Of a DNA stretch of 64,000 nucleotides, positions 28,060 through 48,223 are shown piece by piece (within the stretch, counting starts at the first letter, position 1; the number at the start of each line of letters is the position of its first letter). Made by a program: the position numbers and the translations under genes. Source of the stretch: Rickettsia typhi (lineage in GTDB: Bacteria > Pseudomonadota > Alphaproteobacteria > Rickettsiales > UBA1997); contig CAMAYG010000005.1 of NCBI GenBank assembly GCA_945862535.1, positions 19,952 through 83,951 on the forward strand, written 5' to 3'. A model generated the notes under the pieces. The model searched no databases. It had not been told where the DNA came from and worked only from the letters and a program-made list of their open reading frames with translations.

Positions 28060-29058
28060 ATGAATAACAGCACAATTATCAACTCCGCAATAAGCACAAT
28101 AAAGCAAGAAATCAAAGGCTTGAACGATTTGCTAGACTTTTTTAACATCCCTGAAGATTGCGAAAACTTTAACAAGGCAATAAAATTAATTATCGATAAC
28201 CAAAAAAACTCTAACGGCAGAGTAATTTTAAGTGGAATGGGAAAAAGTGGTCATATTGCCAGTAAAATTGCCGCAACTTTTGCTTCAACAGGCACCCCCG
28301 CCTTTTTTGTTCACCCCGCAGAAGCTAGCCATGGCGACTTAGGAATGATAAGCAAAAACGATTTAGTAATTATTCTTTCTAATTCTGGCGAAAATAAAGA
28401 AATTCAAGATCTAATCTATTATTGCAGTAAATTTAACATTGCTGTTATTGGCATAACTCGCAATAAAAATTCTGAATTAGCAAAATTAAGCACCATTTCA
28501 TTAGTTTTACCAAATACGGCCGAGGCAAACCTATTAAAAGCTCCAACCACATCAACTACAATGATGCTTGCTTTAGGCGATGCAATTGCCGTTAGTTTAA
28601 TTAACGAAAAAAACATCAATATTGAAGATTATCGTAAATTTCACCCCGGCGGAAAACTAGGTATAGAAATGCTAAATGTATCAATGGTAATGCGAAACGG
28701 TAAAGACCTGCCAAAAGTTACAAAAACCGCCAATATTGCCGAGGTTCTATTAGAAATCAGCTCAAAATATTTGGGATGCACTGCGGTAGTAGAAAATAAC
28801 AAGCTGGTTGGAATAATTACCGATGGCGATATTCGTCGAGCAATTTTTAAAAATCAGGAAAATAACGATTTATTTTCTAGAAATGCATCTTTTATAATGA
28901 CCAACAACCCGTTAACAATAGCAAAAGACTTACTAGCGATTGAGGCGGTAAAAATTATGAATAACAATTCCGTTACTTGCCTTTTTATTGTTGATGACAA
29001 CGAAGATTTGATTGGCATTATCCATCTTCACGACTGCCTTAGATTGGGGTTAAATTAG
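28060..29058 (+). CDS. kpsF: arabinose-5-phosphate isomerase (SIS + tandem CBS)
   Basis: The motif GRVILSGMGKSGHIASKIAATFASTGTPAFFVHPAEASHGDLGM is followed by C-terminal CBS pairs. Confidence 0.9.
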   Translation: MNNSTIINSAISTIKQEIKGLNDLLDFFNIPEDCENFNKAIKLIIDNQKNSNGRVILSGMGKSGHIASKIAATFASTGTPAFFVHPAEASHGDLGMISKNDLVIILSNSGENKEIQDLIYYCSKFNIAVIGITRNKNSELAKLSTISLVLPNTAEANLLKAPTTSTTMMLALGDAIAVSLINEKNINIEDYRKFHPGGKLGIEMLNVSMVMRNGKDLPKVTKTANIAEVLLEISSKYLGCTAVVENNKLVGIITDGDIRRAIFKNQENNDLFSRNASFIMTNNPLTIAKDLLAIEAVKIMNNNSVTCLFIVDDNEDLIGIIHLHDCLRLGLN

Positions 29059-30011
29059 TTAATTTTAGCAATTGAAATAACTTTTAAGGCTCTTTTATTT
29101 CCTTCAATAATTTTGATTTTTAAATTTCTAATCTCTAATTCTTCGCCGACTTCTGGTATTTTTTTAAAAACAGCTAAAGCAAAACCTCCTATTGTTTCAA
29201 AGTTATCTTCGAGATTGCTAATTTTTATATCAAATATTTCTTCGATTTTAGTAATTGCCACTCTGGCACCAAATTCAAAATTATCTTCGCTCTTTTTTTT
29301 AATACGAAAAAACGAATTATCGCTTGGTAAATCGTGCTCATCATCGATATTACCTACAATTTCTTCCATAATATTTTCAATAGTAATTAGGCCGTCTACA
29401 GCACCAAATTCGTCTAAAACTACTGCCATGTGAGTTCTGGCAATTCTCATTTTTAGAAGCAAATCTATAGGCTTAATAGTGGCTGGAACAAATAAGATTT
29501 TCCGTAATATTTTGCTAATTTTAAAATCCTTAACATCGACACTTAAAAATTGTATTAAATCCTTACTATGAATAAAACCAATAATTTCATCGATATTTTC
29601 TTTAAATACAGGGATTCTACTATGGCCCTTTTCTACTATATTCTTCTTAATATTATTAATGTTTTCATTAGCAGAAACTGCAATTATGTCGTTGCGAGAG
29701 GTCATTAAGGTGCCAATTTTCTTTTCCGATAAAGTTGCCAACTTAACAAATAATTGTTGCTCTTCAAAGGTAATAACTCCTTGGTTACGATAACTATTAA
29801 GAAGGTTATTGATAATAATTAAGAATGTTTTGCGGGTTTTTTTATTGATTAAATTAAGTAGCCAGCTAATTATGCCAACTATTTTTTGCCCTTCGAATCT
29901 TTTTTTAACAAAAACCTTTTTTGTTGAATTTTTTTTGTGTTTTTTAAAATTTTTAATTAATTTTTTCATTTTTAAAAATATTGTTAATTTTTTTAATAAT
30001 TTGGCTATCAA
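29055..30011 (-). CDS. tlyC: CBS-domain + CorC/HlyC transporter-associated domain protein (TlyC/CorC family)
   Basis: It has a CBS pair (IMTSRNDIIAV..., GFIHSKDL) and the C-terminal motif DEFGAVDGLITIENIMEEIVGNIDDEHD plus a CorC_HlyC domain. Confidence 0.85.
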   Translation of the reverse strand: MIAKLLKKLTIFLKMKKLIKNFKKHKKNSTKKVFVKKRFEGQKIVGIISWLLNLINKKTRKTFLIIINNLLNSYRNQGVITFEEQQLFVKLATLSEKKIGTLMTSRNDIIAVSANENINNIKKNIVEKGHSRIPVFKENIDEIIGFIHSKDLIQFLSVDVKDFKISKILRKILFVPATIKPIDLLLKMRIARTHMAVVLDEFGAVDGLITIENIMEEIVGNIDDEHDLPSDNSFFRIKKKSEDNFEFGARVAITKIEEIFDIKISNLEDNFETIGGFALAVFKKIPEVGEELEIRNLKIKIIEGNKRALKVISIAKIN

Positions 30012-30945
30012 CCATCTCTTTTATCGCCTCTTGCTGATTAGTAATAATTTGCGGCAAATAAGAATATTGCTCAAGGAAAACATTACCAAAGACTGTTTTT
30101 TTCTTTAACTCTTCATTATAGTCAATATTATTTTTTATATAATTTTTGTTAAAGAAATCAATCATTATTAGCAAAAAAAATGCCAATGAAGCCTTAATAT
30201 TACAATTTGCAGAAGGTATTCTATATTCTATTCTTTCTTTTGGAATTATTCTAATTGCAGCGGTGCGATTATTATTACCAACAGAAATTCTGGTTGGAGA
30301 ATTGTATTTACCTATTTTAGATAAATATTGATTAATTTCAATTGAAAACCTAAGAAAATCTGATGCCTTGGGAACGAATATTGGCAAGGTTTTATTAATA
30401 TTTTCTAAAATATTAAATAAGAAATAATCTATTAATTTTTTACATTTATCTTCCGGTGAGTTTAATATATTTTTTTGATTTTTATCGATTAAAGAAAAAT
30501 TAATTTGTAATGCACTTCCGCAGTCTTTTTTATTTGGTTGCCCAGCAAAACTTGGCTTCAATTTTTGCTTATTAGCAATTTTAGCGATTTGTTTTTTTGC
30601 TAAATTCAAGTTGTTAATTTGTAAAATTAGACTTGTACTTGCTAAGGTTTTTATTTCAAATTGATGATGTCCAGCCTCTTTGGCTATTATAATTTTACTA
30701 CTTAAAGAGTTATTTTTTAAATATCGACTAAATATTAAATAAAAATTATCGATTCTTTGCTCTAATTTAAATTTACTGCTTTTTTTGTAATCGGTGTCTA
30801 GTAAGTAAAATTCTAACTCAAAGCCAATTTTCAGCTTAAGATTAAATCTTCTAATAAATCTATTAAAAGATTTATTAGAAAAAATAAAAAATTTATCTTG
30901 TTGATAAAAAAACTTATTAACTTTGGTCGATAAATTTACTTGCAA
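29953..30945 (-). CDS. divergent glutamine-synthetase-catalytic-domain-like protein (no N-terminal beta-grasp domain)
   Basis: GFELEFYLLD, EAGHHQFEI, NNRTAAIRI and RIEYRIPSANCN parallel the GS motifs (E.EF.L, ..G(Q)HE(I/V), NRSA.IRIP, R.E.R.PD...NP). It is very K/N/I-rich and uses a TTG start. Confidence 0.45.
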   Translation of the reverse strand: MQVNLSTKVNKFFYQQDKFFIFSNKSFNRFIRRFNLKLKIGFELEFYLLDTDYKKSSKFKLEQRIDNFYLIFSRYLKNNSLSSKIIIAKEAGHHQFEIKTLASTSLILQINNLNLAKKQIAKIANKQKLKPSFAGQPNKKDCGSALQINFSLIDKNQKNILNSPEDKCKKLIDYFLFNILENINKTLPIFVPKASDFLRFSIEINQYLSKIGKYNSPTRISVGNNNRTAAIRIIPKERIEYRIPSANCNIKASLAFFLLIMIDFFNKNYIKNNIDYNEELKKKTVFGNVFLEQYSYLPQIITNQQEAIKEMVDSQIIKKINNIFKNEKIN

Positions 30946-30980
30946 ATTACAATGAATTAGTAGTTTTTTGTAAAATTAGA

Positions 30981-31298
30981 TTAAATATTTTCTTCAATCC
31001 ATTCTATTAAGCTATTTTTCGGCAATGCTCCAATCTTTGTATCTACCAATTTATTTTGTTTAAAAATCATTAAAGCAGGAATACCGCGAACAAGGAATTT
31101 AGAAGGAAACTCTGGGTTTTCATCGACATTACATTTGTATATAGTAATTTTATCTGCCATTTCTTGGCTAAGTTGATCGATAATAGGACCTAATTGACGG
31201 CAAGGACCACACCATGGAGCCCAAAAATCTACTAAAATTGGTTTAGTGCTATTTTCGAGAATTTCGGAAAAATTGCTATCGTTAATTTCTTGAGACAT
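30981..31298 (-). CDS. trxA: thioredoxin
   Basis: 105 aa with the active site VDFWAPWCGPCRQL. Confidence 0.9.
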   Translation of the reverse strand: MSQEINDSNFSEILENSTKPILVDFWAPWCGPCRQLGPIIDQLSQEMADKITIYKCNVDENPEFPSKFLVRGIPALMIFKQNKLVDTKIGALPKNSLIEWIEENI

Positions 31299-31379
31299 TT
31301 AATTTATTGATTGATTCATATTTTATAACAAAAACAATTTAGTAATAACTTTTTATTTTTCAAGGTCATTAGTTTGTTT

Positions 31380-32246
31380 TTAAAATAATTTTTCATTTAC
31401 TGCCATTTTTTCATTTACTGCTACCGCGATATAATCTAGATTACCAACATCCTCTGCCATTTTAACCTCAACAATATCATTATTTACATTAGCAATTGTA
31501 CCAACTAATATTCCTGAAGGCATTATATTGCCATCGCCAGAAGTAAATATTTTTTCACCAACTTTAAGAAAATGATTCTTTTGCAAATATAATATCTCCA
31601 TATTGCCGTTGTTCTTACCAGCTATAATTCCTTTTATTCTCTTATTTTCACTAATAACAGGGATTTTTGATTTAGAATCTGTTATTAATATAATTATCGA
31701 CCTATTTTTCTCTACCTTTATCACCCTCCCTATAATTCCTAATCTTCCTAATATAATAGAGTTTTCAACTATCCCATGATCTAAACCAATATTGATAAAA
31801 TAATGATTGTTAAATATTTGCCCACTTCTGCCAATAAATTTAGCAATTTTAAAGTTATTAAATTTAAGGCGGTTTACTTGTAGAATCTTATCTATTTCTT
31901 GATATTCTTTTTTTAAATTAACCATCTCCAGATAATGATTTTTTAAAATAATATTTTCTTGTTTTAGTTTTATATTTTCTTTTTTTGCAATTATTAGCTC
32001 GTGAAAGCTGTTTAAAGCTTCAATAGAGCCATCAAAAGGGAAATTTATTATTTTTACTATTGGTAATGAAATTTTAATAAAAAATAGCGATATTTTATTA
32101 TGAAAATCACGATTATTTTTAGTTATAGTTAAAAATAAGATACATAAAATTATTAAAAAAATCGTTTCAAATTTTTTTAAAAAAATCTCTAGACTCTTTT
32201 TAATACTGCTAGAATTTTGATACCTAGGATTAAAATACTGATTCAT
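31380..32246 (-). CDS. mreC: rod-shape-determining protein MreC
   Basis: It has an N-terminal TM helix, a coiled coil (ENIKLKQENIILKN) and beta-barrel motifs (GRLGIIGRVIKVEKNRSIIILITDSKSKIPV, FTSGDGNIMPSGILVG). Confidence 0.75.
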   Translation of the reverse strand: MNQYFNPRYQNSSSIKKSLEIFLKKFETIFLIILCILFLTITKNNRDFHNKISLFFIKISLPIVKIINFPFDGSIEALNSFHELIIAKKENIKLKQENIILKNHYLEMVNLKKEYQEIDKILQVNRLKFNNFKIAKFIGRSGQIFNNHYFINIGLDHGIVENSIILGRLGIIGRVIKVEKNRSIIILITDSKSKIPVISENKRIKGIIAGKNNGNMEILYLQKNHFLKVGEKIFTSGDGNIMPSGILVGTIANVNNDIVEVKMAEDVGNLDYIAVAVNEKMAVNEKLF

Positions 32247-32257
32247 TAAATTATTTT

Positions 32258-32947
32258 TTAAAGTTTGTAATAAATGGCTTCAAATTTATCTTTAGCAATA
32301 TTAATTATTTTATTTTGTGATTTTTTATAGTTAAAATTTATTAGATTTTCTTGATAAATTTTCTCAATAGAAGTAATGCCAAAATCTTTAATACCACAAG
32401 GAATAATATTATTGAAAGCATTTAAGTCTGGAGCAATATTAATTGCTATTCCATGATAAGATACCCATTTTTTTAATTTAATTCCTATTGCGGCGATTTT
32501 TTCTTCGTTTTTCTTATTAATAACCCAAATACCAACACGATTTTGCCTTATTTCTCCTTTAATATCAAATGATTTTAAAATTTCAATAATCCAATCTTCT
32601 AAAAATTTAACAAAAAATGAAATATCTGGGGTTTTACCTAGAAAAAACCTTTTTAAATCGATAATTAAATAACATATTTGCATTTTTGGACCATGAAAAG
32701 TATATTTTCCGCCACGATTTACCATTATTACCGGAATATCGTTTTTGGAAATTAAATCTTCTTCTTTTGCACTAATTCCAGCGGTGTAAACATTTTTATG
32801 TTCTAAAAACCAAATTAATTGAGGTTTTTTATTTAAAAAAACCTCTTCAGCCCTAGATTCCATAATAGATAAAGCGGTAGAATAATCAATTAAATTATCT
32901 TCAAAAACCCATTCTAAAGAACTTAAATATTCGTCTTTATTTATCAT
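32258..32947 (-). CDS. lipB: octanoyltransferase (lipoate-protein ligase B)
   Basis: Motifs are WFLEHKNVYTAG, NRGGKYTFHGPKMQICY and KIAAIGIKLKKWVSYHGIAINI. Confidence 0.85.
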   Translation of the reverse strand: MINKDEYLSSLEWVFEDNLIDYSTALSIMESRAEEVFLNKKPQLIWFLEHKNVYTAGISAKEEDLISKNDIPVIMVNRGGKYTFHGPKMQICYLIIDLKRFFLGKTPDISFFVKFLEDWIIEILKSFDIKGEIRQNRVGIWVINKKNEEKIAAIGIKLKKWVSYHGIAINIAPDLNAFNNIIPCGIKDFGITSIEKIYQENLINFNYKKSQNKIINIAKDKFEAIYYKL

Positions 32948-32954
32948 TTTACAA

Positions 32955-34025
32955 CTAATTTTTTTCGCGAATCGTTTTTACTAACAATTCAACATTTTCA
33001 ATTGGAGTTTCTGGCAATATACCATGTCCAAGATTAAAAATAAAAGAGTTTTGATTAAAATCTTTTACTATTTGCTTTGCCGATTTAACAATATTTTCTT
33101 TACTACCAAATGCTAATAAGTAATTGTCAAAATTACCTTGAATCGTTGTTTTAAAAGGTTTTTGAATGTTTTCAACCACCCAATTATTGTTAAAATTCTG
33201 GTCAATTGCCAAGCAATCAAATTTAACATTTTTAGCAAAATCTAATATCATCGATCCGCTCCCTTTGGCAAAACATATGATTGGAGTATCTGGAAATACT
33301 TCTTTGATTTTATTAACAATTTTAGCATTTGGTTTAATAACAAAATTTTGATAATCGTTAAAAGGTAATATTCCAGCCCAAGAGTCGAATAGCTTTATTA
33401 TATCTGCCCCTGCAAATATCTGTTGTTTAAGATAAATAACTACAGCATCTACTATTATATCTATTAATTTTTCGAAGAAATCTGGGTTAGAACAAATTAT
33501 TTTTTTAACTTTTTCAAAATTTTTAGATCCTCCGCCTTCAATCATATAACAAGCTAAAGTAAAAGGAGACCCAGAGAAACCTATTAAAGCTTTATCTGAA
33601 GGCATTTTACTTTTTGTAATATTTATTGCCTCAAAAACTGGCGCTAAATGGCTTTTTACCTGATTTACTTTAAGTTTTTCCAAGTTAAAATTTTGGTCTA
33701 TATGGTTAATTTTTGGTCCTATTTTTTCGATAAATTCTACTTTTAAACCAAGAGCATCGGGTATCGTTAAGATATCGGAAAAAATAATAGCAGCATCAAA
33801 ATCAAATCGTTTTATTGGCTGTAAAGTTACTTCGGAGGCAAGTTTTGGATTATAACATAAATCTAAAAAACTGCCAGCATTTTTTCTTATTTCTCGATAT
33901 TCAGGTAAATATCTTCCTGCTTGCCTCATTATCCATATTGGAGGATAAATTTGTGGTTTTTTATCGACTAAAGCGGAAATAATTTTTTTCTCATCAAGAT
34001 TTATTGTTTTCAGTTCTTTTTTCAT
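32955..34025 (-). CDS. hemE: uroporphyrinogen decarboxylase
   Basis: Motifs are PIWIMRQAGRYLPEYREIR, FDFDAAIIFSDIL and LFDSWAG. Confidence 0.9.
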   Translation of the reverse strand: MKKELKTINLDEKKIISALVDKKPQIYPPIWIMRQAGRYLPEYREIRKNAGSFLDLCYNPKLASEVTLQPIKRFDFDAAIIFSDILTIPDALGLKVEFIEKIGPKINHIDQNFNLEKLKVNQVKSHLAPVFEAINITKSKMPSDKALIGFSGSPFTLACYMIEGGGSKNFEKVKKIICSNPDFFEKLIDIIVDAVVIYLKQQIFAGADIIKLFDSWAGILPFNDYQNFVIKPNAKIVNKIKEVFPDTPIICFAKGSGSMILDFAKNVKFDCLAIDQNFNNNWVVENIQKPFKTTIQGNFDNYLLAFGSKENIVKSAKQIVKDFNQNSFIFNLGHGILPETPIENVELLVKTIREKN

Positions 34026-34517
34026 TTTTAAATGAGTATATTTTAATAGAGTTTATAAAATGTTAATATTTCTTAATTATCAACATTTTATTAACAAAAA
34101 CCACTTTAATAGAGTCTTATTTTACCAAGATTTTTAATAAAATTGTTAATAGTTTTTCTGTTAATATTTTTTGTTATTAAAATGTTGATAATAGTTAATT
34201 TTTTGTTAATAAAATTATTTTTAATAAATCCTTGTTGATAGATTGTTAATAAAAGAAGGATTGTTAATAAAACCTTAGTAAATTGTTAATAAAAAACTGT
34301 TAAAACAAATTATTTATTGGTTTTAATTAATGGTGAAAATTGTTAATAATTTTAACTCTAAAAGATTATTACAATATTTTCAATTTTCAATTTGCTTTTT
34401 GCTTTTTATTTATTAATTATATTGGTTAAAATATAATTTGCTATTTGTTGGTTGATTTATTTATTTATTATATTGAAAAAGAGTTTCATTATACTTGCTA
34501 ATCTTTGGAGGAATTCG
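34026..34517. other. candidate chromosomal replication origin (oriC) region
   Basis: This is a very AT-rich spacer next to hemE. It has 5 same-orientation copies of ATTGTTAATA(A/G) (34142, 34242, 34260, 34282, 34339) plus 3 TGTTAATA cores. It has 3 near-consensus DnaA-box 9-mers (34077-34085, 34183-34191, 34233-34241) and one TTAA-N7-TTAA (34195-34209). Flanking genes diverge from it. Confidence 0.5.
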
Positions 34518-35924
34518 TTGTTAAAATCTATTAAATCTCTTAAAATATCTGGTAAAAATTCTTTACCAATTATAGAAGGCGGTAAAGGTGTTGGAGTTAC
34601 TAATGGTGTCACAGCTGGTCATTTTGCAAAACATGGTGCTGTTGGTACTTTTTCTGGTGTTAATGCTGATTATATCGATGAAAATGGTAATTTTGTTCCG
34701 TTAATTTACAATACTCACACTAGAAGAGAGAGGCATCTAGAGCTTATTGATTATAGCATTAAAGGCGGAATATCTCAGGCAAAAATTGCGAAAGATATTT
34801 CTGGAAATAGTGGTCGAATTCATATTAATGTTTTATGGGAAATGGGTGGAGCTGAAAAGGTTTTACATGGTATTTTAGAAGGTGCTAAAGACTTAATTCA
34901 TGGAGTTACCTGTGGAGCAGGTATGCCTTATCGCTTATCGGAAATTGCCGAGAAATATAAAGTTTATTACTATCCTATTGTTTCTTCAATGCGAGCCTTT
35001 CGTGCCTTATGGAAAAGAAGTTATTTTAAAGTGAAAGATCTTTTAGGTGGTGTGGTTTATGAATGTCCGTGGCGGGCAGGAGGCCATAATGGTCTTTCTA
35101 ATGCCGAAAATCCTACAGAATTTCAAGATCCTTACCCAAGAGTTACTGAATTACGAAGCTTTATGAATTCTGTTGGTCTTAATGATGTTCCTATTGTTAT
35201 GGCGGGAGGAGTTTGGAATCTTGAAGAATATGAAGGTTGGCTCGAAAACCCCGAAATAGGGCCGATAGTCTTTCAATTTGGCACTCGCCCAATAGTTACT
35301 CAAGAATACCCTGTCCCGATGTCTTGGAAGCAGAAAATGCTTAATTTGAAAAAAGGCGATGTTTATTTAAATCGTTTCAGCCCTACTGGCTTCTATTCTT
35401 CTGCAGTAGAAAATAATTTTATTAAAGAGTTACAGCAAAGAGAAATTCGTCAAGTAGAATATCGCTCAAAAAGCGAAGGAGAATTTAACAAGGAAATTCC
35501 TTTTGGTAATCGTGGTCGTGTTGTCTATATTAAATCGCAAGATCATCAAAAAGTTGAACAATGGATTGCTTTAGGACATAACGAACCTATGAAAACCCCA
35601 GATGAAACCTTAATGTTTGTCGATAAATCTAAGGCTCAGCAAATATTAACCGATCAAATAAATTGTATGGGTTGTTTAAGTCAGTGTAGGTTTAGCAACT
35701 GGTCAGATAAAGAAGAAAATCATTACACTAATGGCCTTAAGGCCGATCCTCGCAGTTTTTGTATTCAAAAAACTCTGCAAGAAGTTCGTAAAGGCATAGA
35801 CATAGATAATCAGCTAATATTTTCTGGTCATAGTGCTTATCGCTTTGCCTCCGACCCATTTTATGCTAATGGTTTTATCCCAACAATTGGGCAATTAATA
35901 AACCGCATCATGCTTGGGAAGTAA
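34518..35924 (+). CDS. nitronate-monooxygenase-like (NMO/FMN TIM-barrel) protein
   Basis: Motifs are LPIIEGGKGVGVTNGVTAGHFAKHGAVGTFSG, VTCGAGMP and VMAGGVWN. The track start is 34452 (TTG). I prefer the in-frame TTG at 34518, 6 nt behind GGAGG (34507-34511). It may be the 'RP001'-type origin-flanking gene of alphaproteobacteria, from memory and unverified. Confidence 0.7.
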   Translation: MLKSIKSLKISGKNSLPIIEGGKGVGVTNGVTAGHFAKHGAVGTFSGVNADYIDENGNFVPLIYNTHTRRERHLELIDYSIKGGISQAKIAKDISGNSGRIHINVLWEMGGAEKVLHGILEGAKDLIHGVTCGAGMPYRLSEIAEKYKVYYYPIVSSMRAFRALWKRSYFKVKDLLGGVVYECPWRAGGHNGLSNAENPTEFQDPYPRVTELRSFMNSVGLNDVPIVMAGGVWNLEEYEGWLENPEIGPIVFQFGTRPIVTQEYPVPMSWKQKMLNLKKGDVYLNRFSPTGFYSSAVENNFIKELQQREIRQVEYRSKSEGEFNKEIPFGNRGRVVYIKSQDHQKVEQWIALGHNEPMKTPDETLMFVDKSKAQQILTDQINCMGCLSQCRFSNWSDKEENHYTNGLKADPRSFCIQKTLQEVRKGIDIDNQLIFSGHSAYRFASDPFYANGFIPTIGQLINRIMLGK

Positions 35925-36084
35925 ATTTAATTTATTTTGCTAGACTGTAGTAATTTAATACTACCCAATATAATGCTAGAAATCGCTAATCTATTGACTC
36001 TTGAGAAGTTTTTTATAAATTAGCTTTATTAAAATCACCCGCAGTAATTTATAATAAATTATTTAACAAAATATTAGCCATATT

Positions 36085-36852
36085 ATGTCGATACAAGTAA
36101 TGTTATTTGATAATTTTATTAAAAACAAAATAAATTTATCAAAAGATAAGTTAATGACAATGAAAAAAAAAGAAAAACAAAAAGAAGAACCAAAAGAAAT
36201 AAAGTTTTGTAGCTCTTTGCAGTTTAATCAAAGACAAAAAATGAACGGCATCGATCTATTATCAAAAATAGATAATGAGACTACTAAAGCAGTATTTTTC
36301 GATCCTCAATATCGTGGTATATTAGATAAACAAAAATATGGCAATGAAGGAATTTTACGAGACAAAAGAAGATGTAATCTTGAGCAAATGCCAGAAGAAA
36401 TGATTGTTGAATTTATTAAAGAAATAGATAGAGTTTTACAGCCTTCCGCCTATTTATTTTTGTGGATCGATAAGTTTCATTTATGTGAAGGAGTTTCTGG
36501 TTGGTTTAGTAATACAGCTTTACAAACGGTCGATTTGATGATATGGGAAAAGCCAAATATTGGCATGGGTTATCGCACCAGAAATAAATGCGAATTTTTA
36601 TTAATTTTACAAAAGAAGCCAATAAAAGCTAAATCAACCTGGACAATCCATAATATTCCTAATGTTTGGAAAGAGAAAGTGATAACTAAAATCCACCCAC
36701 ATACAAAACCCCTAGAAATGCAGAAAATTTTAATTAATGCAACAACTAATGAAGGGGATATTGTTATTGACCCTGCGATGGGAAGTGGTTCTGTTTTACA
36801 ATCTTGCCTAGAAACAAATAGAACTTTTGTTGGTTGCGATATTAACGGCTAA
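36085..36852 (+). CDS. beta-class DNA methyltransferase (N6-adenine or N4-cytosine), type II R-M
   Basis: The catalytic motif IV variant VFFDPQYRG lies N-terminal, and the AdoMet motif I (IVIDPAMGSGSVLQSC) lies near the C-terminus. This IV->I order marks the beta class. Confidence 0.75.
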   Translation: MSIQVMLFDNFIKNKINLSKDKLMTMKKKEKQKEEPKEIKFCSSLQFNQRQKMNGIDLLSKIDNETTKAVFFDPQYRGILDKQKYGNEGILRDKRRCNLEQMPEEMIVEFIKEIDRVLQPSAYLFLWIDKFHLCEGVSGWFSNTALQTVDLMIWEKPNIGMGYRTRNKCEFLLILQKKPIKAKSTWTIHNIPNVWKEKVITKIHPHTKPLEMQKILINATTNEGDIVIDPAMGSGSVLQSCLETNRTFVGCDING

Positions 36853-36864
36853 AATCAAAAAAAA

Positions 36865-37581
36865 ATGGCTAAAATTAAAGATGCAAAGGCAAAAAATTCG
36901 AGCGGCTCATATGCTAGAGTCTTTAACAATAAAGCACTTGGAGATTTAATTACCAAGGTTCATAGCACCTCTATTTCTAACGGATCTGAATTAGAAAATT
37001 TGATTTTACATTATATAGTCAAAGATTTTATAGTAGAAGACTGTGATGAATTTTTACACAATTTTAAAAGATTTAATAATACAGAAGCTGATATTATAAG
37101 ATTAATACCAAAAAAAATATTAAAAAAATCTAAAACATTAAAGCCTCAAAAAAACCCTGAAAATAAAACTTTTGAACCAGATTTCGTCGTGTTAAAAATT
37201 GACTCAATACAACAATGTTGCTATATTATCGAGTTAAAAGATGGGTTCGTTTTTGATACAAAAAAAGTGATTGGTGAAAGAAGGCATTTAGAAGATTTTG
37301 AAAATTATATTGCTAAACAAATACCTTTTGCAACTAAAATCAAGTTTTGTTGCTTTAATGAAACCAGTAAAGAAAAAATCAAAAATGGCTTAAAAGGCGC
37401 TTTTGATGTTAATGAAATTATGACAGGAGAAGAGTTTTGTGCCCTAGTTAAAATCGACTACGATAACATTATAAGGCTAAGAAAAAATGATAGTGTAGAG
37501 AATATCGATTATTTTATTGATGAATTATTAAAAATAGCAAATATAAAAGAGTTAATCGTAGAAAAGTTGGGAAATAAGTAA
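36865..37581 (+). CDS. putative type II restriction endonuclease (PD-(D/E)XK)
   Basis: It starts 12 nt after the methyltransferase. EPDFVVLKIDSIQQCCYIIELKDG fits a PD...(E)XK nuclease core. No specific enzyme family was recognised. Confidence 0.45.
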   Translation: MAKIKDAKAKNSSGSYARVFNNKALGDLITKVHSTSISNGSELENLILHYIVKDFIVEDCDEFLHNFKRFNNTEADIIRLIPKKILKKSKTLKPQKNPENKTFEPDFVVLKIDSIQQCCYIIELKDGFVFDTKKVIGERRHLEDFENYIAKQIPFATKIKFCCFNETSKEKIKNGLKGAFDVNEIMTGEEFCALVKIDYDNIIRLRKNDSVENIDYFIDELLKIANIKELIVEKLGNK

Positions 37582-37643
37582 TTATTGCCAAATGTTAAAT
37601 ATCAAGAACTGCAGGCTTTAGCTCGCAGAAAAATTATCAATCA

Positions 37644-39269: not shown

Positions 39270-39426
39270 TTTATTGTGGCAACAAGAGGTCTAGCCACTT
39301 GTTTTTCTAGAAGACAAAGCCAATGAAATAGCGGAGTTAAATAACCATCCCCTCTTAATTATTTCTGGGGGAGGGTTGGAAACACCGTCACCCTGCGCGA
39401 AGTCGCAGGGTCATAGTCCTCCAGCT

Positions 39427-39535
39427 GTCATCCTGCACGAAGTTGCAGGATCCAGAGCGATAAAATCAACACTAATCGGAACTTCGCTAAAATGTATCAT
39501 TAATCTATAGATCCTGCAACTTCGTGCAGGATGAC
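39427..39535. repeat. family-1 palindromic MITE-like element, full copy (109 bp)
   Basis: It reads GTCATCCTGCACGAAGTTGCAGGATC - 57-bp AT-rich core (CAGAGCGATAAAATCAACACTAATCGGAACTTCGCTAAAATGTATCATTAATCTATA) - GATCCTGCAACTTCGTGCAGGATGAC. The terminal 26-bp hairpins are inverted repeats of each other. Confidence 0.85.
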
Positions 39536-39640
39536 GACAGAGGGCGGTTTTGTGGTAATAAATGCAAATTTTAAAAAGTCGCGAAGATCCACCTCCGCTG
39601 TCATCCTGCGCGAAGTCGCAGGATCTATAGTCCTCCAGCC

Positions 39641-39750
39641 GTCATCCTGCGCGAAGTCGCAGGATCTATTAATTACTAAATACATTTTGGCGAAGTTTCT
39701 TTTAATATTGACTTCATTACTCTGGATCCTGCGACTTTGCGCAGGATGAC
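39641..39750. repeat. family-1 palindromic MITE-like element, full copy, core inverted relative to 39427 copy
   Basis: It reads GTCATCCTGCGCGAAGTCGCAGGATC - CTATTAATTACTAAATACATTTTGGCGAAGTTTCTTTTAATATTGACTTCATTACTCTG - GATCCTGCGACTTTGCGCAGGATGAC. Confidence 0.85.
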
Positions 39751-39759
39751 AGCGGAGCT

Positions 39760-40086
39760 GTCGTCTGGACTGCTTATTCTAGGAACCAAGGTCGTGTCAT
39801 TTCCTATTACATCGGCGAAGGAGTAAGAACCGCAACTAATTTATATCTCCAAGTAAAAAACATCGTTCCCAATGTCGCTAAAATCTGCACCGATGCCAAT
39901 AGTTGCTACGATATTGCATTTAAAAGATTTGGTGTGGCAGATTTGGAGTGAAATATTTGGAGTGAAATATTTGGAGTAACGGAGCCTCATATCGTTACTA
40001 AAAGAGAGACTCACTTGATAGAATCGTCAAATAGTAGCATCAGAGATAATCTTGCCAAAACCAAAAGATTTTCCAAAACATTATAG
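39760..40086 (+). pseudogene. remnant of an IS1-like transposase (C-terminal part, disrupted)
   Basis: My translation has two parts: ..VVWTAYSRNQGRVISYYIGEGVRTATNLYLQVKNIVPNVAKICTDANSCYDIAFKRFGVADLE* and, in another frame, HIVTKRETHLIESSNSSIRDNLAKTKRFSKTL*. The pattern (..TD..Y... H.V.K.ET..IES.N..IR..L.R..R.T..FSK) is IS1-family-like. A 14-bp triplicated insert (39941-39980) breaks the frame. Confidence 0.45.
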
Positions 40087-40386
40087 ATGCTAGACACTAC
40101 CCTAAAACTCTTTTTTAACAGAAATTTACTATGGCAACACTAAAATAACAGTGCCCCTTGAGGGAGGGTAAATTTGCTAGCAATTTCGGGGAGGGGTCAG
40201 AAGTATTTTCAACAAAATTAGGGCTAAGGTTGTGATGAGTTTTCTTACCCCGCCCCGCATCGCCAATTTATTGGCTCTGCGACCCTCCCTCAAGGGGAGG
40301 GTTGGAAACATTATGCTTTTCGCCTTCGACCCTCCACCGCCGTCATCCTGCGCGAAGCTTGCGAAGGTCCATGGTTCCCTCCAGCC

Positions 40387-40496
40387 GTCATCCTGCGCGA
40401 AGTCGCAGGATCTATAGATTCCTAAATACATTTTAGCGAAGTTTCTTTTAATATTGATTTCATTACTTTAGATCCTGCAACTTCGTGCAGGATGAC
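40387..40496. repeat. family-1 palindromic MITE-like element, full copy (110 bp)
   Basis: It has the same hairpins and core as the 39641 copy (..GGATCTATAGATTCCTAAATACATTTTAGCGAAGTTTCTTTTAATATTGATTTCATTACTTTAGATCC..). Confidence 0.85.
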
Positions 40497-40624
40497 GGTG
40501 CAGGAAGTTTTTTGTGGTTGCAAATAAAACACTTTTTCTTACGATTTTTTACTTAAAAAACAATGTTTTATGCTATTGTAGGTAGTGAAATAGCCAATTG
40601 GTGTTAGTTGTTTTGTGGTGCCTA

Positions 40625-42478
40625 TTATGAGTTATTTTTAATAATTTTGTCGATTAATTCAAAAATTGCTTTGAAATTTTCAAAATCTGAATATTGGAAG
40701 TTCGCAGTATCAGACGCAAACTTTGATTTTTTATTATAATCTTTGGTAATGATTTTAATTGTATTGCCGCCAACTTGTTCTTTATCTTCTAATAAGTTTA
40801 TAATTTTGTCATCACTAAACAAATATTCAATACAAACTTCGCTATCTTTTCCCCATTTTACACTGACAAGATTTATTCTATTTGTTGGAATTGGCAATAA
40901 AAATACAAACCCATTTTGACTTCCATGCTTTAAACATAACCCCTTATTGATATTATCCTCGTAATCAAAGTACTTCTTACCTTTGCTATTTTTAATCTCC
41001 TCATATTTTTCATAGGCATCATCAAAATCTAACATGCCAATAAAGGTTTTCTTGTTTTTTAGAAAAATATCACCTCTTTTAAAAGTATTAGCAATGAAGT
41101 GCATATCAAACGCATCTTGGATGTAAAATGGTATTTGGCTATTAGGATAAAGTTTCCTCCAAGCATTTTCTAAAATAATTTTATCTGTTTTTCCTTCTAC
41201 AAACAATACAGGTTTATCATCTTGAGCTTGCATGATTTTTTTAAGGTCTTCTTCAAATTTCTTTGTCTCCTTAAAATAATCATAGGCTTTATCAAATTCT
41301 CTGAATCTCTCCGCTGTTATAACATCACCAGTTGGCATCTCTCTAATTTCTATACCATTCGTGCCGAATTTTTTTTCCATTCCTAATAAAAACAATGGGG
41401 AATGAGTTGTAATAATAAATTGCACCTTTGGGAATAGGCTTATTAACGCTGGCAATACATTACTCTGCAAATCAGAATGCAAATGTAAGTCTATTTCGTC
41501 TATAATAACAATACCAGACATTTTGTCATTTGTATGTGCAATATTGCCACGCTCACCATATCTCACAACAGTACAAAATAAACTGAATAACACTGATTGC
41601 CCCGTTGATAAATTATTTAAACTTGGAATTATTTCCTGTTTGTTTGTACCATCTATAACTTTTATACGGGAAAGTGGATGATTTCTATAATTTAAATCAA
41701 GCTCTGCATCTCTCTTGAGTATTTTAGTTAGTATTTGCTCTATATTTTCTTTTGATGTTACGAGCAGTGAACGTGTCTCTACATCATTATTTTGAATATC
41801 ATAAGTACTACCTTCTCTGTGTTTTGCGATAACTGAAGCATCTAGAAAAACATCAAGAATCCAAGAGTTGATATCATCATAAGCAGATTCAATAATAAGT
41901 GGATCATTAAGTCTTCCGGAATATCTTTGCTTGTGAACAAGTTTATTTTTTCCGCTATCATAAACTTTATTAATCCAATGGGGCATCTCAAATCTATTTG
42001 GCGGAAAGTAGCAATAACTATTGCGTAAGAAAGTGTTTTCGAGTTCTTGATTTGTTAGATTTGTGATTTGTTTACCTTTCTCTTTATCAATGTTCAATGT
42101 GCATTCATTCATATTATTCTTTAGTTCCGAATCCGTAACTTCTCCTGTCGTTTCCAAATATTCATATTTCTTATTGTTGTTTTCAAATTGCAAATAAGAA
42201 ATTGAATTTGACGCACCGATCCTTGTATTGCCACCACCAACTGTTTTAAAAAAGGAATATCCGTTACTGTTTCTTTTTAATACTTCATCTTGTTTAAATG
42301 TGCTGTTTTGAAATTCTAGTATTGCATCAGCAATATGAGATAATAAAATGCTTTTGCCAGTTCCATTTTCACCAACTATTATAAGTGGTTTTGGCTCTCC
42401 GTTTTCTTTAAATGGCATTGAAATATCGAGTTTTTCAATTGCCCCGATGTTTTTGATAAAAATCTTTTTTAAATACAT
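40625..42478 (-). CDS. ABC-type ATPase fused to a C-terminal TOPRIM/DUF4435-like nuclease domain (OLD-family / fused PARIS-like defence candidate)
   Basis: 617 aa. It has Walker A (VGENGTGKS), a signature-like NLSTGQSVLF, Walker B (IVIIDEIDLHLH) and an H-loop (FIITTHSP). The C-terminal ~190 aa carries PVLFVEGKTDKIILENAW (TOPRIM Glu) and IGMLDFDDAY (DxD). Confidence 0.7.
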   Translation of the reverse strand: MYLKKIFIKNIGAIEKLDISMPFKENGEPKPLIIVGENGTGKSILLSHIADAILEFQNSTFKQDEVLKRNSNGYSFFKTVGGGNTRIGASNSISYLQFENNNKKYEYLETTGEVTDSELKNNMNECTLNIDKEKGKQITNLTNQELENTFLRNSYCYFPPNRFEMPHWINKVYDSGKNKLVHKQRYSGRLNDPLIIESAYDDINSWILDVFLDASVIAKHREGSTYDIQNNDVETRSLLVTSKENIEQILTKILKRDAELDLNYRNHPLSRIKVIDGTNKQEIIPSLNNLSTGQSVLFSLFCTVVRYGERGNIAHTNDKMSGIVIIDEIDLHLHSDLQSNVLPALISLFPKVQFIITTHSPLFLLGMEKKFGTNGIEIREMPTGDVITAERFREFDKAYDYFKETKKFEEDLKKIMQAQDDKPVLFVEGKTDKIILENAWRKLYPNSQIPFYIQDAFDMHFIANTFKRGDIFLKNKKTFIGMLDFDDAYEKYEEIKNSKGKKYFDYEDNINKGLCLKHGSQNGFVFLLPIPTNRINLVSVKWGKDSEVCIEYLFSDDKIINLLEDKEQVGGNTIKIITKDYNKKSKFASDTANFQYSDFENFKAIFELIDKIIKNNS

Positions 42479-42574
42479 ATCTTAAATAGTTAAATTTTCC
42501 ACAGCCCTAAGCTTATCAACACTTAAGTCGTAAAGAGGGTAGCGAAGTTGCGAGTATCAATGGCTCCCTCCCTT

Positions 42575-42648
42575 GTCATCCTTGCGCAAAGTCGCGAGTA
42601 TCCAGAGCAATAAAATCAATAGATCCTGCGACTTCGCGCGAGGATGAC
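42575..42648. repeat. family-1 element, short copy (core truncated)
   Basis: It reads GTCATCCTTGCGCAAAGTCGCGAGTATC-CAGAGCAATAAAATCAAT-AGATCCTGCGACTTCGCGCGAGGATGAC. Confidence 0.7.
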
Positions 42649-42777
42649 GGCAGAAGGTAGATCCTGCGACTTCGCGCGAGGATGACGGTAGAAGGTAGAT
42701 CCTGCGACTTCGCGCAGGATGACGGCAGAAGGTAGATCCTGCGACTTCGCGCGAGGATGATGGTGTAGTGGGAAGGT
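42621..42777. repeat. spacer-less tandem array, 37-38 bp x 4, of the family-1 hairpin (AGATCCTGCGACTTCGCGCGAGGATGACGGCAGAAGGT)
   Basis: Copies start at 42621, 42659, 42697 and 42734, and the last is diverged at its 3' end. The ORF 42576..42818 just translates it (repeated LPSSCAKSQDL / ILARSRRIY). Confidence 0.9.
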
Positions 42778-42877
42778 TCGCGGAGAAAAACTAGGCTTCT
42801 AGACTTCGAAGGCTTCAACTAGACTGCAACGGCGGGAACCTTAGAAAAACCCACCTTCGCATTTAGCTAAATGGAGC

Positions 42878-44827
42878 TTAAGCAAGCATTTTTTGGAGAC
42901 GAAGAGAGAAGTCTGAGCTGTCTTTTATTGGTTCGTCTTCGATGATACAAGCCAGATCGAACAAAGTTTTTACTTTGTCGGTGCAGATTTCTTTTAGACT
43001 AAGGTTTTGATAGTTGTCGTTGAGATATTTTATAATTGAGTTATTGCTGTTGATTTCGAGGATTTTAGCAGTTGCAGAATTGATTTGCTTTTGCTCAAGC
43101 AAGAATCTTTCGAGCCTAATGTCCATGCCGATAGAATCTACCGCTAAACATACCGGGCTATTGGTAAGTTTTTTTGAGATTCTGACATCGGCAACTTGAG
43201 TGCCAAGAACTTCTTTAAAGAATCCTATTAGCCCTTCTAATGCTGTCTCGGTAATGTCTTTGATTTTTTCGTCCTTTTTTGTGCCGTCTTCGTTTTGCTC
43301 TTCTGCTTTTTGTTCGTCTAGAGGCTTGTCAATATTAATTAAATCGATATCGTTACGATTAATCGACTGAAATTCCCATTCGATTTTGCTTGATTTGTTC
43401 TGATAAGGCAAAGCAACGGTTACCCAAAATTCATCGACAGCATCTGTAAGAAATAACACCTCGACATCCTTATTGTAGAAGGCTTCTAGCTGAGGAGAAT
43501 TTTTGATTTTATTAACATTTTCTCCGGTTAGGAAATATATTTTATTTTGCCCCGCTTTTGCTCTTTCGAGATATTCGCTAAGGCTAATTAGTTCATTAGG
43601 AGATTTCGAGCTGTAAAAACGAGAAATTTCGAGGATTTTTTCGCGGAATTCCGATGCTTCGCACAGCCCTTCTTTTAACACCGCACCAAAATTATTCCAA
43701 AATTTAAGATATTCTTCTTGGTTTTCATTGGCTTTTTTCTTGAGTTCGCCTAAAACTTTGCCAATTAGGGATTTTTTGATTTTTTCAATTAAGGCACTGT
43801 GTTGCAGGTTTTCACGGCTAATGTTGAGTGGCAAATCTTCCGAATCGACTACTCCTCTTAGAAACCGCAAATAAGCAGGAACAAGGCTTAAATCTTCGCT
43901 AATAAAAACTCTTTTAACATAAAGTTTTAAAGCGGTGCGACGATCGGGGTGGAATAGGTCAAAAGGCTTAGTGCTAGGAACAAATAACAGATTGCTGTAT
44001 GAAACTAGGCCCTCGACCTTGTTGTGGATTGTCATGAATGGCTCGCCCGGTAAATGAGCGATGTGGCGGAAGAATTCTTGATATTGTTCTGCGGTTATTT
44101 GTTCTTTTGGTCTTTGCCAAATTGCCGATGCCGAATTTAGAGTTTCAATTTTTGCTCCTTCGCTGATATTTTCTGGGATGAAATCTATTTTAAAGTTGAT
44201 GTGATCGGAATAGGTTTGCACGATGTGCTTAATGTGGAAGCGATCGAGGAAATCTGAGGCATCGTCTTTTAAAAACAAGGTAATAATTGTGCCTTGTTTA
44301 AAATCTGACGATAATTCTTGATTGTGTTGATTAAGCTCGAAACCGCTATTGCCGTCTGAGGCCCAGAAATAGGTGTCTTGTTCTTGATATTTACGAGAAA
44401 TAACCTCTACTTTATCGGCGATCATAAAGCTAGAATAAAAGCCAACCCCAAACTGCCCTATTAATTGCAGGTCTTTTTTGCTGTCTCCGCTAAGGTTTTT
44501 TAAGAAATTCTCGGTGCCAGAGCGAGCAATAGTGCCTAGGTTGTCGATTAAATCTTGTTTATTCATTCCGATACCGTTGTCGCTAATGATTAATTGCTTT
44601 TTTTCTTTATTAACTTTGATGTTAATTTTTAATTCTTCTAAATTTTCTTGATGTTGTTGATTAGCCAGATACCGCAACTTGTCGCAAGCATCGGCAGCAT
44701 TAGATATTAACTCGCGAAGGGCAACATCGCGATTAGTATAAAGCGAATTTATCATAAGGTTTAAAACCTTGCTAACTTCGACATCGAATTGATAGTTGTT
44801 GTTTGTGTTGTTAGATTGTTCTGTCAT
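42878..44827 (-). CDS. htpG: molecular chaperone HtpG (Hsp90)
   Basis: Motifs are LRELISNAADACDKLRY, DNGIGM and GQFGVGFYS. Length is 649 aa. Confidence 0.95.
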   Translation of the reverse strand: MTEQSNNTNNNYQFDVEVSKVLNLMINSLYTNRDVALRELISNAADACDKLRYLANQQHQENLEELKINIKVNKEKKQLIISDNGIGMNKQDLIDNLGTIARSGTENFLKNLSGDSKKDLQLIGQFGVGFYSSFMIADKVEVISRKYQEQDTYFWASDGNSGFELNQHNQELSSDFKQGTIITLFLKDDASDFLDRFHIKHIVQTYSDHINFKIDFIPENISEGAKIETLNSASAIWQRPKEQITAEQYQEFFRHIAHLPGEPFMTIHNKVEGLVSYSNLLFVPSTKPFDLFHPDRRTALKLYVKRVFISEDLSLVPAYLRFLRGVVDSEDLPLNISRENLQHSALIEKIKKSLIGKVLGELKKKANENQEEYLKFWNNFGAVLKEGLCEASEFREKILEISRFYSSKSPNELISLSEYLERAKAGQNKIYFLTGENVNKIKNSPQLEAFYNKDVEVLFLTDAVDEFWVTVALPYQNKSSKIEWEFQSINRNDIDLINIDKPLDEQKAEEQNEDGTKKDEKIKDITETALEGLIGFFKEVLGTQVADVRISKKLTNSPVCLAVDSIGMDIRLERFLLEQKQINSATAKILEINSNNSIIKYLNDNYQNLSLKEICTDKVKTLFDLACIIEDEPIKDSSDFSLRLQKMLA

Positions 44828-44996
44828 TGCTAGAATAATTAAGATTGATGATTTTTAGTAAATAACCGCTGTTATATAATATCTTTATCAAAAAAAACAA
44901 GGGCTATAAATTTTGTTTTTGATTTTATTGCTGTGGATCTTGCCCGCCGATCTTGGCAATTTAGCTATAAATAGTAAATGCAGATAGCTAAATTAA

Positions 44997-45148
44997 CAAT
45001 CCACCGCCTACAGCACTGCAATTTCCAATAAAAATCCATTCCAAGAAAGCATTCCAAGAAAGCTCGCTCGATTTTCCAAGCCTTTTGCTAATGTTAATTT
45101 TTGAAAGATCGCTAGCAAGAAGCTTAAAGAACTGCTGATTTATTGCAT
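44997..45148 (-). pseudogene. deleted remnant of the 3' end of a paralogue of the type IIG R-M gene
   Basis: By-eye alignment shows 45038-45148 is ~80% identical to 48658-48755 (..CATTCCAAGAAAGCTC....AGCTTAAAGAACTGCTGATTTATTG..). 44997-45026 matches 48463-48482 (CCACC.CTGCAATTTCC). About 170 bp is missing between the two matches. Confidence 0.55.
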
Positions 45149-45185
45149 TTAGCGGCTAGATAATTTAAAAAGATTTAGTTTTTGA

Positions 45186-46148: not shown

Positions 46149-46156
46149 TTTTTAAA

Positions 46157-47233: not shown

Positions 47234-47560
47234 GATTATGTGGTTATTAATGGTAAAAATTGGTGAAATTTTATTAACTAAACAACCTTCAAAAGCCTTT
47301 TTAATATGCTTTATTTAGTTTTGATAGTTATTTAGTGCAGATTCTATGCCCTTAGATTATTGCAAATAGTTATTTTAGATTCAAGAATATTAAAGATTTA
47401 TTTTGTTCGGCGAGGTATTTACTATCTACGGACCTTACAACTTCGCTTCGCTCCGCGGTCGAAGGTGAAGACGGGGTTTTAGGCAGTTAAAATCGCTTTT
47501 CCTTGCGAACTTTCTCTGCCGTCATCCTGCACGGAAGCTTGCGAAGATCCACCTTCTGCC

Positions 47561-47668
47561 GTCATCTTCGCACAAGTTGCAGGATCCAGGGCAATGAAAT
47601 CAATATTAAAGTGAACTCCGCTAAGTGTATTATAAATCCATGGATCCTGCAACTTCGTGCAGGATGAC
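47561..47668. repeat. family-1 palindromic MITE-like element, full copy
   Basis: It reads GTCATCTTCGCACAAGTTGCAGGATC-CAGGGCAATGAAATCAATATTAAAGTGAACTCCGCTAAGTGTATTATAAATCCATG-GATCCTGCAACTTCGTGCAGGATGAC. Confidence 0.85.
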
Positions 47669-47826
47669 AAGGGAGCGAGTGCAGGATGACAAGGGAGCGA
47701 GTGCCGTTATTAACTATGGATATTTGCAACTTCGCTTTCGCTTCGTGCGCAGGATGACGGCGGGGGGAGTTTTTGGGCAAGGTGACGAGCTGAGGCGGTT
47801 TTGTAAGCCAATAAAACCTCGTTCAT

Positions 47827-47958: not shown

Positions 47959-47972
47959 CAATTTTCCACGCC

Positions 47973-48089: not shown

Positions 48090-48223
48090 AAGGGAGCGAG
48101 TGCAGGATGACAAGGGAGCGAGTGCCGTTATTAACTATGGATATTTGCAACTTCGTGCAGAATCCATAGCAGAAAAGTCGAACAACAGCAACACCGCCAT
48201 ATTCTCGCGAACTCTCTTAATTG

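Follow-up and report, generated by a model that had tools for sequence, protein, structure and literature searches.

Where does an uncultured, AT-rich, Rickettsiales-like alphaproteobacterium begin to replicate its chromosome? The question is raised by a 492-bp non-coding spacer (34026-34517) that directly abuts the start codon of hemE in a 64-kb stretch of contig CAMAYG010000005.1, the whole of which is referred to here as the window. An earlier note on this DNA had proposed the hemE gap as a candidate origin of replication (oriC), and comparison with related loci supports that proposal through the conservation of the locus with hemE, the pattern of its boxes and the strand composition of its relatives: the gap is likely to be a functional oriC of the hemE-linked type, equipped with predicted DnaA boxes. 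This reading is favoured because an array of short boxes is kept beside hemE despite a differing other flank, because the positions of the boxes are conserved while their spacers diverge, because the variation within the boxes matches the known degeneracy of DnaA boxes, and because strand-composition polarity switches at the gap in relatives. The GC content of the gap is 0.17, compared with 0.34 for the window, and the hemE gaps of relatives are 11-17% GC. The earlier description of a non-coding gap of about 490 bp holds, as no open reading frame (ORF) of at least 60 aa was found inside it. An Rfam scan of the gap gave no match, and a promoter scan of the gap gave matches no more numerous than in shuffles.

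The gap is filled by a family of short repeats. Members of the TAYYAACA family occupy 12 sites within one 300-bp stretch of the gap (about 290 bp), compared with at most three per 300 bp anywhere else in the window, so that the concern that the motif might be equally frequent elsewhere is not borne out over these 64 kb. The strict form TTAYYAACA occurs eight times in the gap, where shuffles of the gap itself give 0.10. The 11-mer ATTGTTAATAR, by which the array had first been recognized, lies on the plus strand at 34142, 34242, 34260, 34282 and 34339, and the window as a whole holds eight copies against 0.24 expected, a count reached in none of 100 shuffles. Its 8-mer core, TGTTAATA, is found 25 times in the window (5.6 expected), with nine of these copies in the gap, including further copies at 34061, 34159 and 34204. 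Three DnaA-like 9-mers accompany them, TTATCAACA at 34077-34085, its reverse complement at 34183-34191 and TGTTGATAG at 34233-34241. The earlier note had placed the five 11-mers, the three extra cores, the three DnaA-like 9-mers and a CtrA-type site correctly, while its tally of cores missed a fourth extra copy on the opposite strand (34089-34096), which is the core of TTATTAACA at 34088-34096. Across the window, the canonical DnaA box with up to one mismatch is not enriched (17 found, 16.3 expected). Two box-like pairs stand outside the gap, one at 10926 and 11033 (TTACTAACA, TTATTAACA) upstream of an HTH_3 gene (10457-10903) and one at 42495 and 42513 (TTTTCCACA, TTATCAACA) upstream of a PtuA-like gene; each consists of two sites and is compatible with chance.

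The predicted functional unit of the array is the 9-mer TTATYAACA, in register with the DnaA box TTATCCACA, and not the 11-mer, which consists of the 9-mer box together with an AT flank peculiar to this lineage. The suggestion that the 11-mer might be a lineage-specific DnaA box is supported in its DnaA part, with the shorter unit taking the place of the longer. Each of the 12 TTATYAACA-type 9-mers lies one mismatch, in the core, from the classical box TTWTNCACA. When 9-mers were counted without bias in eight hemE gaps, TTATTAACA came out on top, with 45 sites distributed over all eight, and an alignment anchored on every AACA showed that the conserved stretch is exactly nine positions long, T-T-A-T-T-A-A-C-A, and that its flanks are weak. 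The clade consensus predicted from these sequences is most likely TTWTYAACA, most often realized as TTATTAACA, in which only position 6 differs from TTWTNCACA.

The array is retained beside hemE over considerable evolutionary distances. In two Logan contigs (L004 and L005), gene order is the same, HemE is 94% identical and the length of the gap is identical. This close relative is present in the runs SRR23086393 and SRR31616043. Seven more distant contigs (L006, L009, L010, L041, L132, L133 and L134) encode HemE proteins that are 56-67% identical, and their hemE-upstream spacers of 254-297 bp hold 5-10 strict TTAYYAACA sites each. Where it could be computed, the density of strict sites in these distant gaps is 120-350 times that of the rest of the locus; for the window and L004 the ratio is 58-65. 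All strict sites of L009, a short contig, fall inside its gap. Conservation of the array in related hemE gaps, which had been put forward as a check, is thus found for the 9-mers, while the AT flank of the 11-mer is specific to the lineage of the window. In the distant relatives, the other neighbour of the gap is bolA (called by Pfam in six, inferred from sequence in L041), rather than the NMO-like flavin oxidoreductase gene found here. Homologues of the NMO-like protein with 76-85% identity occur in many Rickettsiales metagenome-assembled genomes (MAGs), and in three such loci that were fetched (L135-L137, 64 kb in total) the gene is not beside hemE and only single boxes are present; in L135 and L136 it is linked to pyrG. 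Because the bolA-side arrays are kept and L135-L137 are without a cluster, the array follows hemE and not the NMO-like gene. A tlyC-like gene 4 kb away had also been offered as an argument for the origin; it is not needed, the boundary gene in relatives being bolA and neither tlyC nor COG1806. The best named homologues of both HemE and the NMO-like protein belong to MAGs designated "Rickettsiales bacterium". A HemE scan of species-representative genomes returned only relatives with 43-45% identity (L001-L003), of which L001 and L002 are without a box and L001 has a hemE-upstream gap of 66 bp.

Substitutions within the gap point to constraint. Between the window and L004, the gap has accumulated 20 substitutions in 492 bp (4.1%) and no indel, while 4-fold sites of the flanking genes differ at 95 of 764 positions (12.4%); the rate in the gap is therefore about one third of that at 4-fold sites (p=2e-7). 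Phylogenetic footprinting of L010, L132, L133 and L134 found 65 of 80 box columns invariant (81%) compared with 53 of 166 spacer columns (32%; p=3e-13), a contrast that is partly circular in that the box columns were set by a regular expression that already admits W and Y at positions 3 and 5, respectively. Among nine orthologous boxes, the positions that mainly vary are 3, in five boxes (A/T), and 5, in three (T/C), with positions 1, 4, 7 and 8 never varying; 3 and 5 are those occupied by W and N in the classical TTWTNCACA. A single orthologous box reads TTTTCCACA, a canonical DnaA box, in L134, TTATCAACA in L132, TTTTCAACA in L133 and TTTTTAACA in L010. Likewise, the box at 34244-34252 reads TGTTGATAA in L004, which is TTATCAACA on the other strand, a change from TTATTAACA to TTATCAACA.

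Strand composition provides a further line of evidence. Because raw GC skew mainly reflects coding-strand bias, it was replaced by an orientation-corrected regression of the third-position GC skew (GC3) of each gene on whether that gene points away from the gap. Polarity changes in the direction expected of an origin at all five computable loci, with delta values between +0.125 and +0.314, and the readable part of L006 is in agreement. Pooled relatives fit divergence from the gap (r=0.138, p=0.0003), as does the window, both over its full length (r=0.068, p=0.008) and over 1-44.9 kb (r=0.129, p=0.0007). The GC-skew check proposed for the window was accordingly answered in part, with a polarity switch at the gap, and in part not, as described below.

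The identity of the protein that reads the boxes is central to this interpretation. The dnaA-dnaN-recF-gyrB regions of two contigs from unrelated AT-rich bacteria (L043 and L016) have TGTTAATAA and TTATCAACA scattered among TTATCCACA, TGTGGATAA and TGTGGAAAA in the DNA that immediately precedes dnaA. These dnaA-upstream clusters are located at L043:374-740, L016:6817-7120 and L106:1195-1247, the last being a duplicate of L043. Published work describes TTATTAACA as a putative DnaA box in the dnaA-upstream regions of Mycoplasma hominis, M. mobile and M. arthritidis (PMC2751442), and for T5-like phages it is listed among DnaA sites that depart from the consensus. DnaA is most likely the ligand of the motif, favoured by the variation among orthologous boxes, by the company the 9-mers keep upstream of dnaA and by the published Mycoplasma boxes. 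It is unlikely that the motif is instead a site for CtrA or another transcription factor and the array a regulatory region of TTAAC half-sites, even though TTAAC is contained in every box and a perfect TTAA-N7-TTAAC occurs in eight of nine hemE gaps where 0.03-0.07 are expected per gap. The reverse complement of the box, TTATTAACAAT, also contains TTAACAAT, one mismatch from the CtrA 8-mer TTAACCAT. Against this, the nine conserved positions stand in the register of a DnaA box, including the TTA at positions 1-3. At orthologous positions, TTATTAACA is replaced by TTATCAACA, TTTTCAACA and TTTTCCACA, which are without TTAA. Tandem boxes 12 bp apart are about as frequent as those 11 bp apart (the period of the hemE-proximal pair is 12 bp in five relatives, and 11 bp in the window and L006), many boxes are isolated, and TTAA-N7-TTAA is not enriched across the window (10 found, 13.7 expected). 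The same 9-mers, moreover, are found within the dnaA-upstream clusters of the dnaA-dnaN-recF-gyrB bacteria, which lack CtrA. A dual code is conceivable, if doubtful, in which TTATTAACA would serve both as a DnaA box and, through TTAAC, as a CtrA half-site, with competition between DnaA and CtrA set box by box via spacing. Under such a code, boxes 11 bp apart would make a perfect TTAA-N7-TTAAC and 12-bp or lone boxes would not, and domain IV of DnaA would have changed in concert with the C-to-A substitution fixed at position 6 of the box.

Several observations weigh against an origin at the hemE gap, beyond the partial circularity of the footprint. No strict TTWTNCACA box is present in the gap, neither COG1806 nor dnaA lies within the window, and substitutions between the window and L004 are not depleted in the boxes (4/108, compared with 16/384 in the spacer; the changes are few). 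A nearest-neighbour stability profile revealed no discrete DNA unwinding element, the gap being uniformly unstable, and the stability minimum of the window (over 100 bp) lies outside it, at 62077. A metagenome scan for three copies of TTATYAACA returned at least 120 loci, most of them in unrelated DNA that is AT-rich or repetitive; among the three-box loci listed, L041 alone carried hemE, and DnaA, the commonest flanking family among the loci listed, accounted for just 3 of 88 flanking ORFs. Cumulative GC skew in the window reaches only a local minimum at 34 kb and falls further to 64 kb, a single-replichore model is nearly as good for the window as one switching at the gap (residual sum of squares, RSS, 133 compared with 130), and the best window model reverts polarity near 45 kb (RSS 106). 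Past 40.6 kb, 13 of 14 called genes are on the minus strand and so point toward the gap. Finally, the basis of the analysis is the window and a set of contigs, not a complete genome, in which a better candidate could lie elsewhere. These boxes could form a DnaA-box cluster that is not an origin, such as a datA-like titration locus or a DnaA-controlled divergent promoter, the true oriC being elsewhere. Such a cluster would account for the resemblance to DnaA boxes and for the skew polarity past 45 kb, which misfits an origin at the gap, and the hemE promoter must in any case share the spacer. We give it little weight, given that orientation-corrected GC3 skew accords with divergence away from the gap in all six loci analysed (with the polarity change expected of an origin at the five computable ones, and L006 agreeing where readable), that linkage to hemE is a hallmark of alphaproteobacterial origins, and that some ten boxes filling a spacer of 250-490 bp exceed the usual need of promoter control. 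That the array is a relic of an ancestral origin, no longer firing since a rearrangement put the NMO-like gene beside hemE, appears very improbable. In its favour are the right flank, which is rearranged by comparison with relatives, the skew polarity, which reverses again around 45 kb, and the defence island and palindromic repeats located at 39-52 kb. Against it, the array is larger here than in relatives and not decayed, and the gap is strongly constrained, having diverged from L004 by 4.1% where 4-fold sites have diverged by 12.4%, and being free of indels over its 492 AT-rich bases. Iterons of the plasmid or phage type (the earlier note had offered an iteron site as an alternative) and AT-rich low-complexity sequence are effectively refuted. 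The motif is short, repeated and AT-rich, and restriction-modification and defence genes are nearby; however, its unit is 9 bp, at spacings of 11-57 bp and in mixed orientation, whereas iterons are units of 17-22 bp repeated directly at a regular period, neither a rep nor another initiator gene is encoded within 30 kb, shuffles give 0.1 sites where eight are observed, and the array is conserved beside a housekeeping gene across distant lineages.

The anatomy of the candidate origin is set out in Table 1. The module adjoining hemE, about 35-90 bp upstream of the hemE ATG, can be aligned among the window, L004, L006, L010, L041, L132, L133 and L134, and not in L009. It is followed by nine boxes in the same orientation, with start-to-start spacings of 15, 24, 21, 29, 11, 18, 22 and 57 bp. 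The exact TTAA-N7-TTAA at 34195-34209 is the single CtrA-type site of the gap. Matches to the IHF pattern WATCAA-N4-TTR overlap boxes at two places in the window and L004, and none is present in the seven distant relatives. The AT-rich direct repeats on the far side of the gap probably also hold the promoter of the NMO-like gene.

Table 1. Features of the candidate origin and of the window around it.
Feature	Position	Strand	Remarks
tlyC/CorC-like CBS-domain gene (COG1253 type)	29055-30011	-	Pfam CBS and CorC_HlyC; NCBIfam CorC-like
hemE (uroporphyrinogen decarboxylase)	32955-34025	-	Pfam URO-D, E=2.7e-114; conserved boundary gene of alphaproteobacterial origins
Candidate oriC, 492-bp spacer	34026-34517	.	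17% GC, non-coding
Module adjoining hemE	34061-34096	.	Inverted box TGTTAATAT 34061-34069, then tandem TTATCAACA 34077-34085 and TTATTAACA 34088-34096, 11-bp period
25-nt inverted repeat	34076-34192	.	Arms 34076-34100 and 34168-34192, 96% complementary; one box pair per arm
IHF-consensus match TATCAACATTTTA	34078-34090	+	Overlaps box; second copy 34178-34190 on minus strand
Nine same-orientation boxes	34144-34349	-	Box sequence on minus strand
Same-orientation boxes, first five	34144-34152, 34159-34167, 34183-34191, 34204-34212, 34233-34241	-	
Same-orientation boxes, last four	34244-34252, 34262-34270, 34284-34292, 34341-34349	-	
Degenerate box copies	34173-34181, 34301-34309		
CtrA-type site TTAAC-N6-TTAAC	34194-34209	-	Matches TTAA-N7-TTAAC; overlaps box 34204-34212
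AT-rich direct repeats	34389-34475	.	Candidate unwinding element; 13-mers AATTTGCTnTTTG at 34389-34401 and 34435-34447, 20-mers TTTATTTATTwATTATATTG at 34405-34424 and 34456-34475
NMO-like flavin oxidoreductase, 468 aa	34518-35924	+	Pfam NMO; right boundary gene in this lineage only
PtuA-like ATPase	40625-42478		Defence or mobile island 40625-51802
Truncated HsdM	45186-46148		Defence or mobile island
RhuM/Fic protein	46157-47233		Defence or mobile island
MmeI/Eco57I-like type IIL enzyme	48449-51802		Defence or mobile island

From this layout, a mechanism for initiation can be proposed. ATP-bound DnaA would fill about 12 boxes, occupying the inverted box and tandem pair by hemE and then the same-orientation array with its 11-bp pairs, and the resulting DnaA oligomer along the boxes could open the flanking AT-rich DNA, with 34389-34475 and 34026-34060 as candidate places of opening. 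As every box contains TTAAC, a TTAA-N7-TTAAC, at which CtrA could compete with DnaA, would be formed either by one box and an adjacent TTAAC half-site or by a pair of boxes at 11 bp. In particular, the CtrA-type site that overlaps a box could permit repression by CtrA, as in Caulobacter.

The hemE-linked type of origin is known from Caulobacter, Rickettsia and Wolbachia, and the oriC predicted here probably belongs to it. In the summary of Brassinga 2002 that is given in PMC1914354, the origins of Caulobacter and Rickettsia lie between hemE and COG1806, while those of Wolbachia, Ehrlichia and Anaplasma lie between hemE and a COG1253 CBS-domain gene (Ioannidis 2007, PMC1914354), and the boundary genes of origins vary through rearrangement (PMC1914354). 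Set against the features used in PMC1914354, the gap has the hemE adjacency, the length, the AT-richness and at least one TTAA-N7-TTAA site, and it is more conserved than its surroundings, with boxes more conserved than spacers in relatives and not between the window and L004; absent are the second boundary gene (COG1806/DUF299 or COG1253) and boxes fitting TTATNCACA. Two further features used there, an IHF site and a shift in GC skew at the locus, are seen in part, the IHF matches being confined to the window and L004, and the skew switch being clear in relatives but reverting near 45 kb in the window. DUF299 had no match among the window proteins scanned. Like Cori of Caulobacter crescentus and the R. 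prowazekii origin, the gap is an AT-rich spacer upstream of hemE with several DnaA-box-like 9-mers, at least one TTAA-N7-TTAA overlapping a box, and the hemE promoter within the origin. It differs from them in being bounded by the NMO-like gene (bolA in relatives) and not by COG1806, in having about 12 boxes of which none fits TTATNCACA, and in having one CtrA-type site compared with five in Cori. With the origins of Wolbachia, Ehrlichia and Anaplasma it shares linkage to hemE, a length in the range of 385-620 bp, AT-richness, conservation above that of the surroundings (PMC1914354) and a COG1253-like gene in the neighbourhood, which is here 4 kb off. Whereas the Wolbachia origin has three TTATNCACA-type boxes and a single IHF site, the gap has a dozen TTATYAACA boxes and IHF matches that are not conserved. 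The dnaA-linked oriC regions of Mollicutes and Firmicutes (PMC2751442; L043, L016) contain the same variant 9-mers, TTATTAACA and TTATCAACA, and likewise belong to AT-rich genomes, but those clusters lie upstream of dnaA, are mixed with canonical boxes and come from unrelated phyla. Here, in contrast, the variant is essentially the sole box type and is linked to hemE. A further parallel is offered by the oriC of E. coli, in which Rozgaja et al. reportedly described, in 2011, arrays of low-affinity DnaA sites with 2 bp spacing. In both loci, 9-mers that share one orientation are set at an 11-bp period, with oppositely oriented sites on the flanks; the loci differ in sequence, and in E. coli strong R boxes anchor the arrays. 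What is distinctive of the hemE gap is the essentially exclusive use of the position-6 variant box, its roughly 12 copies compared with 3-5, and the different second boundary genes. The variant box as such has a precedent in mollicutes.

The genes on either side of the gap diverge from it locally. On the left, tlyC-like, GlnA-like, trx, mreC, lipB and hemE are on the minus strand, with five genes between the tlyC-like gene and the gap, and on the right the NMO-like gene, an N6_N4 methylase, an uncharacterized 238-aa protein and pyrG are on the plus strand. The divergence that the earlier note had pointed to is real at this scale, but it involves only four genes on the right and is weak evidence, the minus strand predominating again past 40.6 kb. 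The start of the NMO-like gene is a TTG at 34518, preceded by the ribosome-binding site GGAGGA; this start yields a protein of 468 aa, the length of the L004 copy and of nearly all homologues. The remaining genes of the window include nuo subunits, NDUFA12, a 1276-aa VirB6-like protein, leuA, serA, thiD, nrdB, coaE and the defence island. Within 29000-37600, the tlyC-to-hemE genes and the methylase pair have a GC content of 24-30% (trx 33%, NMO-like gene 36%); elsewhere in the window the range is 31-47%, with most values at 33-40%. As its gene order is confirmed by the independent contig L004, this low-GC block is not an assembly chimera.

The methylase and the 238-aa ORF (36085-37581) lie between the NMO-like gene and pyrG, which are directly adjacent in L135 and L136. 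Compared with L004, this pair shows a 4-fold divergence of 5.6-5.9%, while the other genes compared show 9-18%, and it is probably an inserted restriction-modification cassette; it is not a CcrM equivalog. A role for CcrM and its GANTC site was considered and rejected: the adjacent methylase scores 36 bits where the CcrM cut-off is 830, and the lone GANTC of the gap is absent from L004.

Further to the right, the stretch from 39.3 to 51.8 kb is plastic, combining defence genes with palindromic repeats, so that a rearrangement to the right of the gap, away from hemE, is plausible. A 22-nt GC-rich palindromic repeat, ATCCTGCRCGAAGTYGCAGGAT, is present in 11 copies in both orientations (0 expected) and nowhere else in the window, starting at 39390, 39430, 39511, 39603, 39644, 39726, 40390, 40472, 42699, 47644 and 48226 (span 39390-48247). 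All of the copies are in non-coding DNA around the defence island and resemble REP or Rickettsia-palindromic elements; weak Rfam matches to miRNA precursors at 39413-39763 correspond to their hairpins. The gene htpG lies among the defence-island genes, and GC3 polarity reverts within the island, near 45 kb. Non-coding stretches of 1.2-1.5 kb that contain short ORFs only (8920-10456, 39270-40624 and 47234-48448) are likely to be decayed genes, as are commonly seen in Rickettsiales. The 1276-aa protein (56499-60329) is VirB6/TrbL-like and typical of Rickettsiales type IV systems, and a 303-aa ORF at 1663-2574 has a sub-threshold match (42.6 bits, cut-off 60) to a LAPAL-motif phage structural family.

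The analysis supplies a well-supported prediction of the origin and the box consensus TTWTYAACA for an AT-rich, Rickettsiales-like group that is seen only in metagenomes and host genome assemblies. The prediction would be useful for setting the start coordinate of such genomes and for estimating growth rate from peak-to-trough read depth, and origin-finding tools that demand TTATNCACA would miss the locus. The predicted origin remains beside hemE even where the gene on its other side is a different one. The general picture of alphaproteobacterial origins is unaltered.

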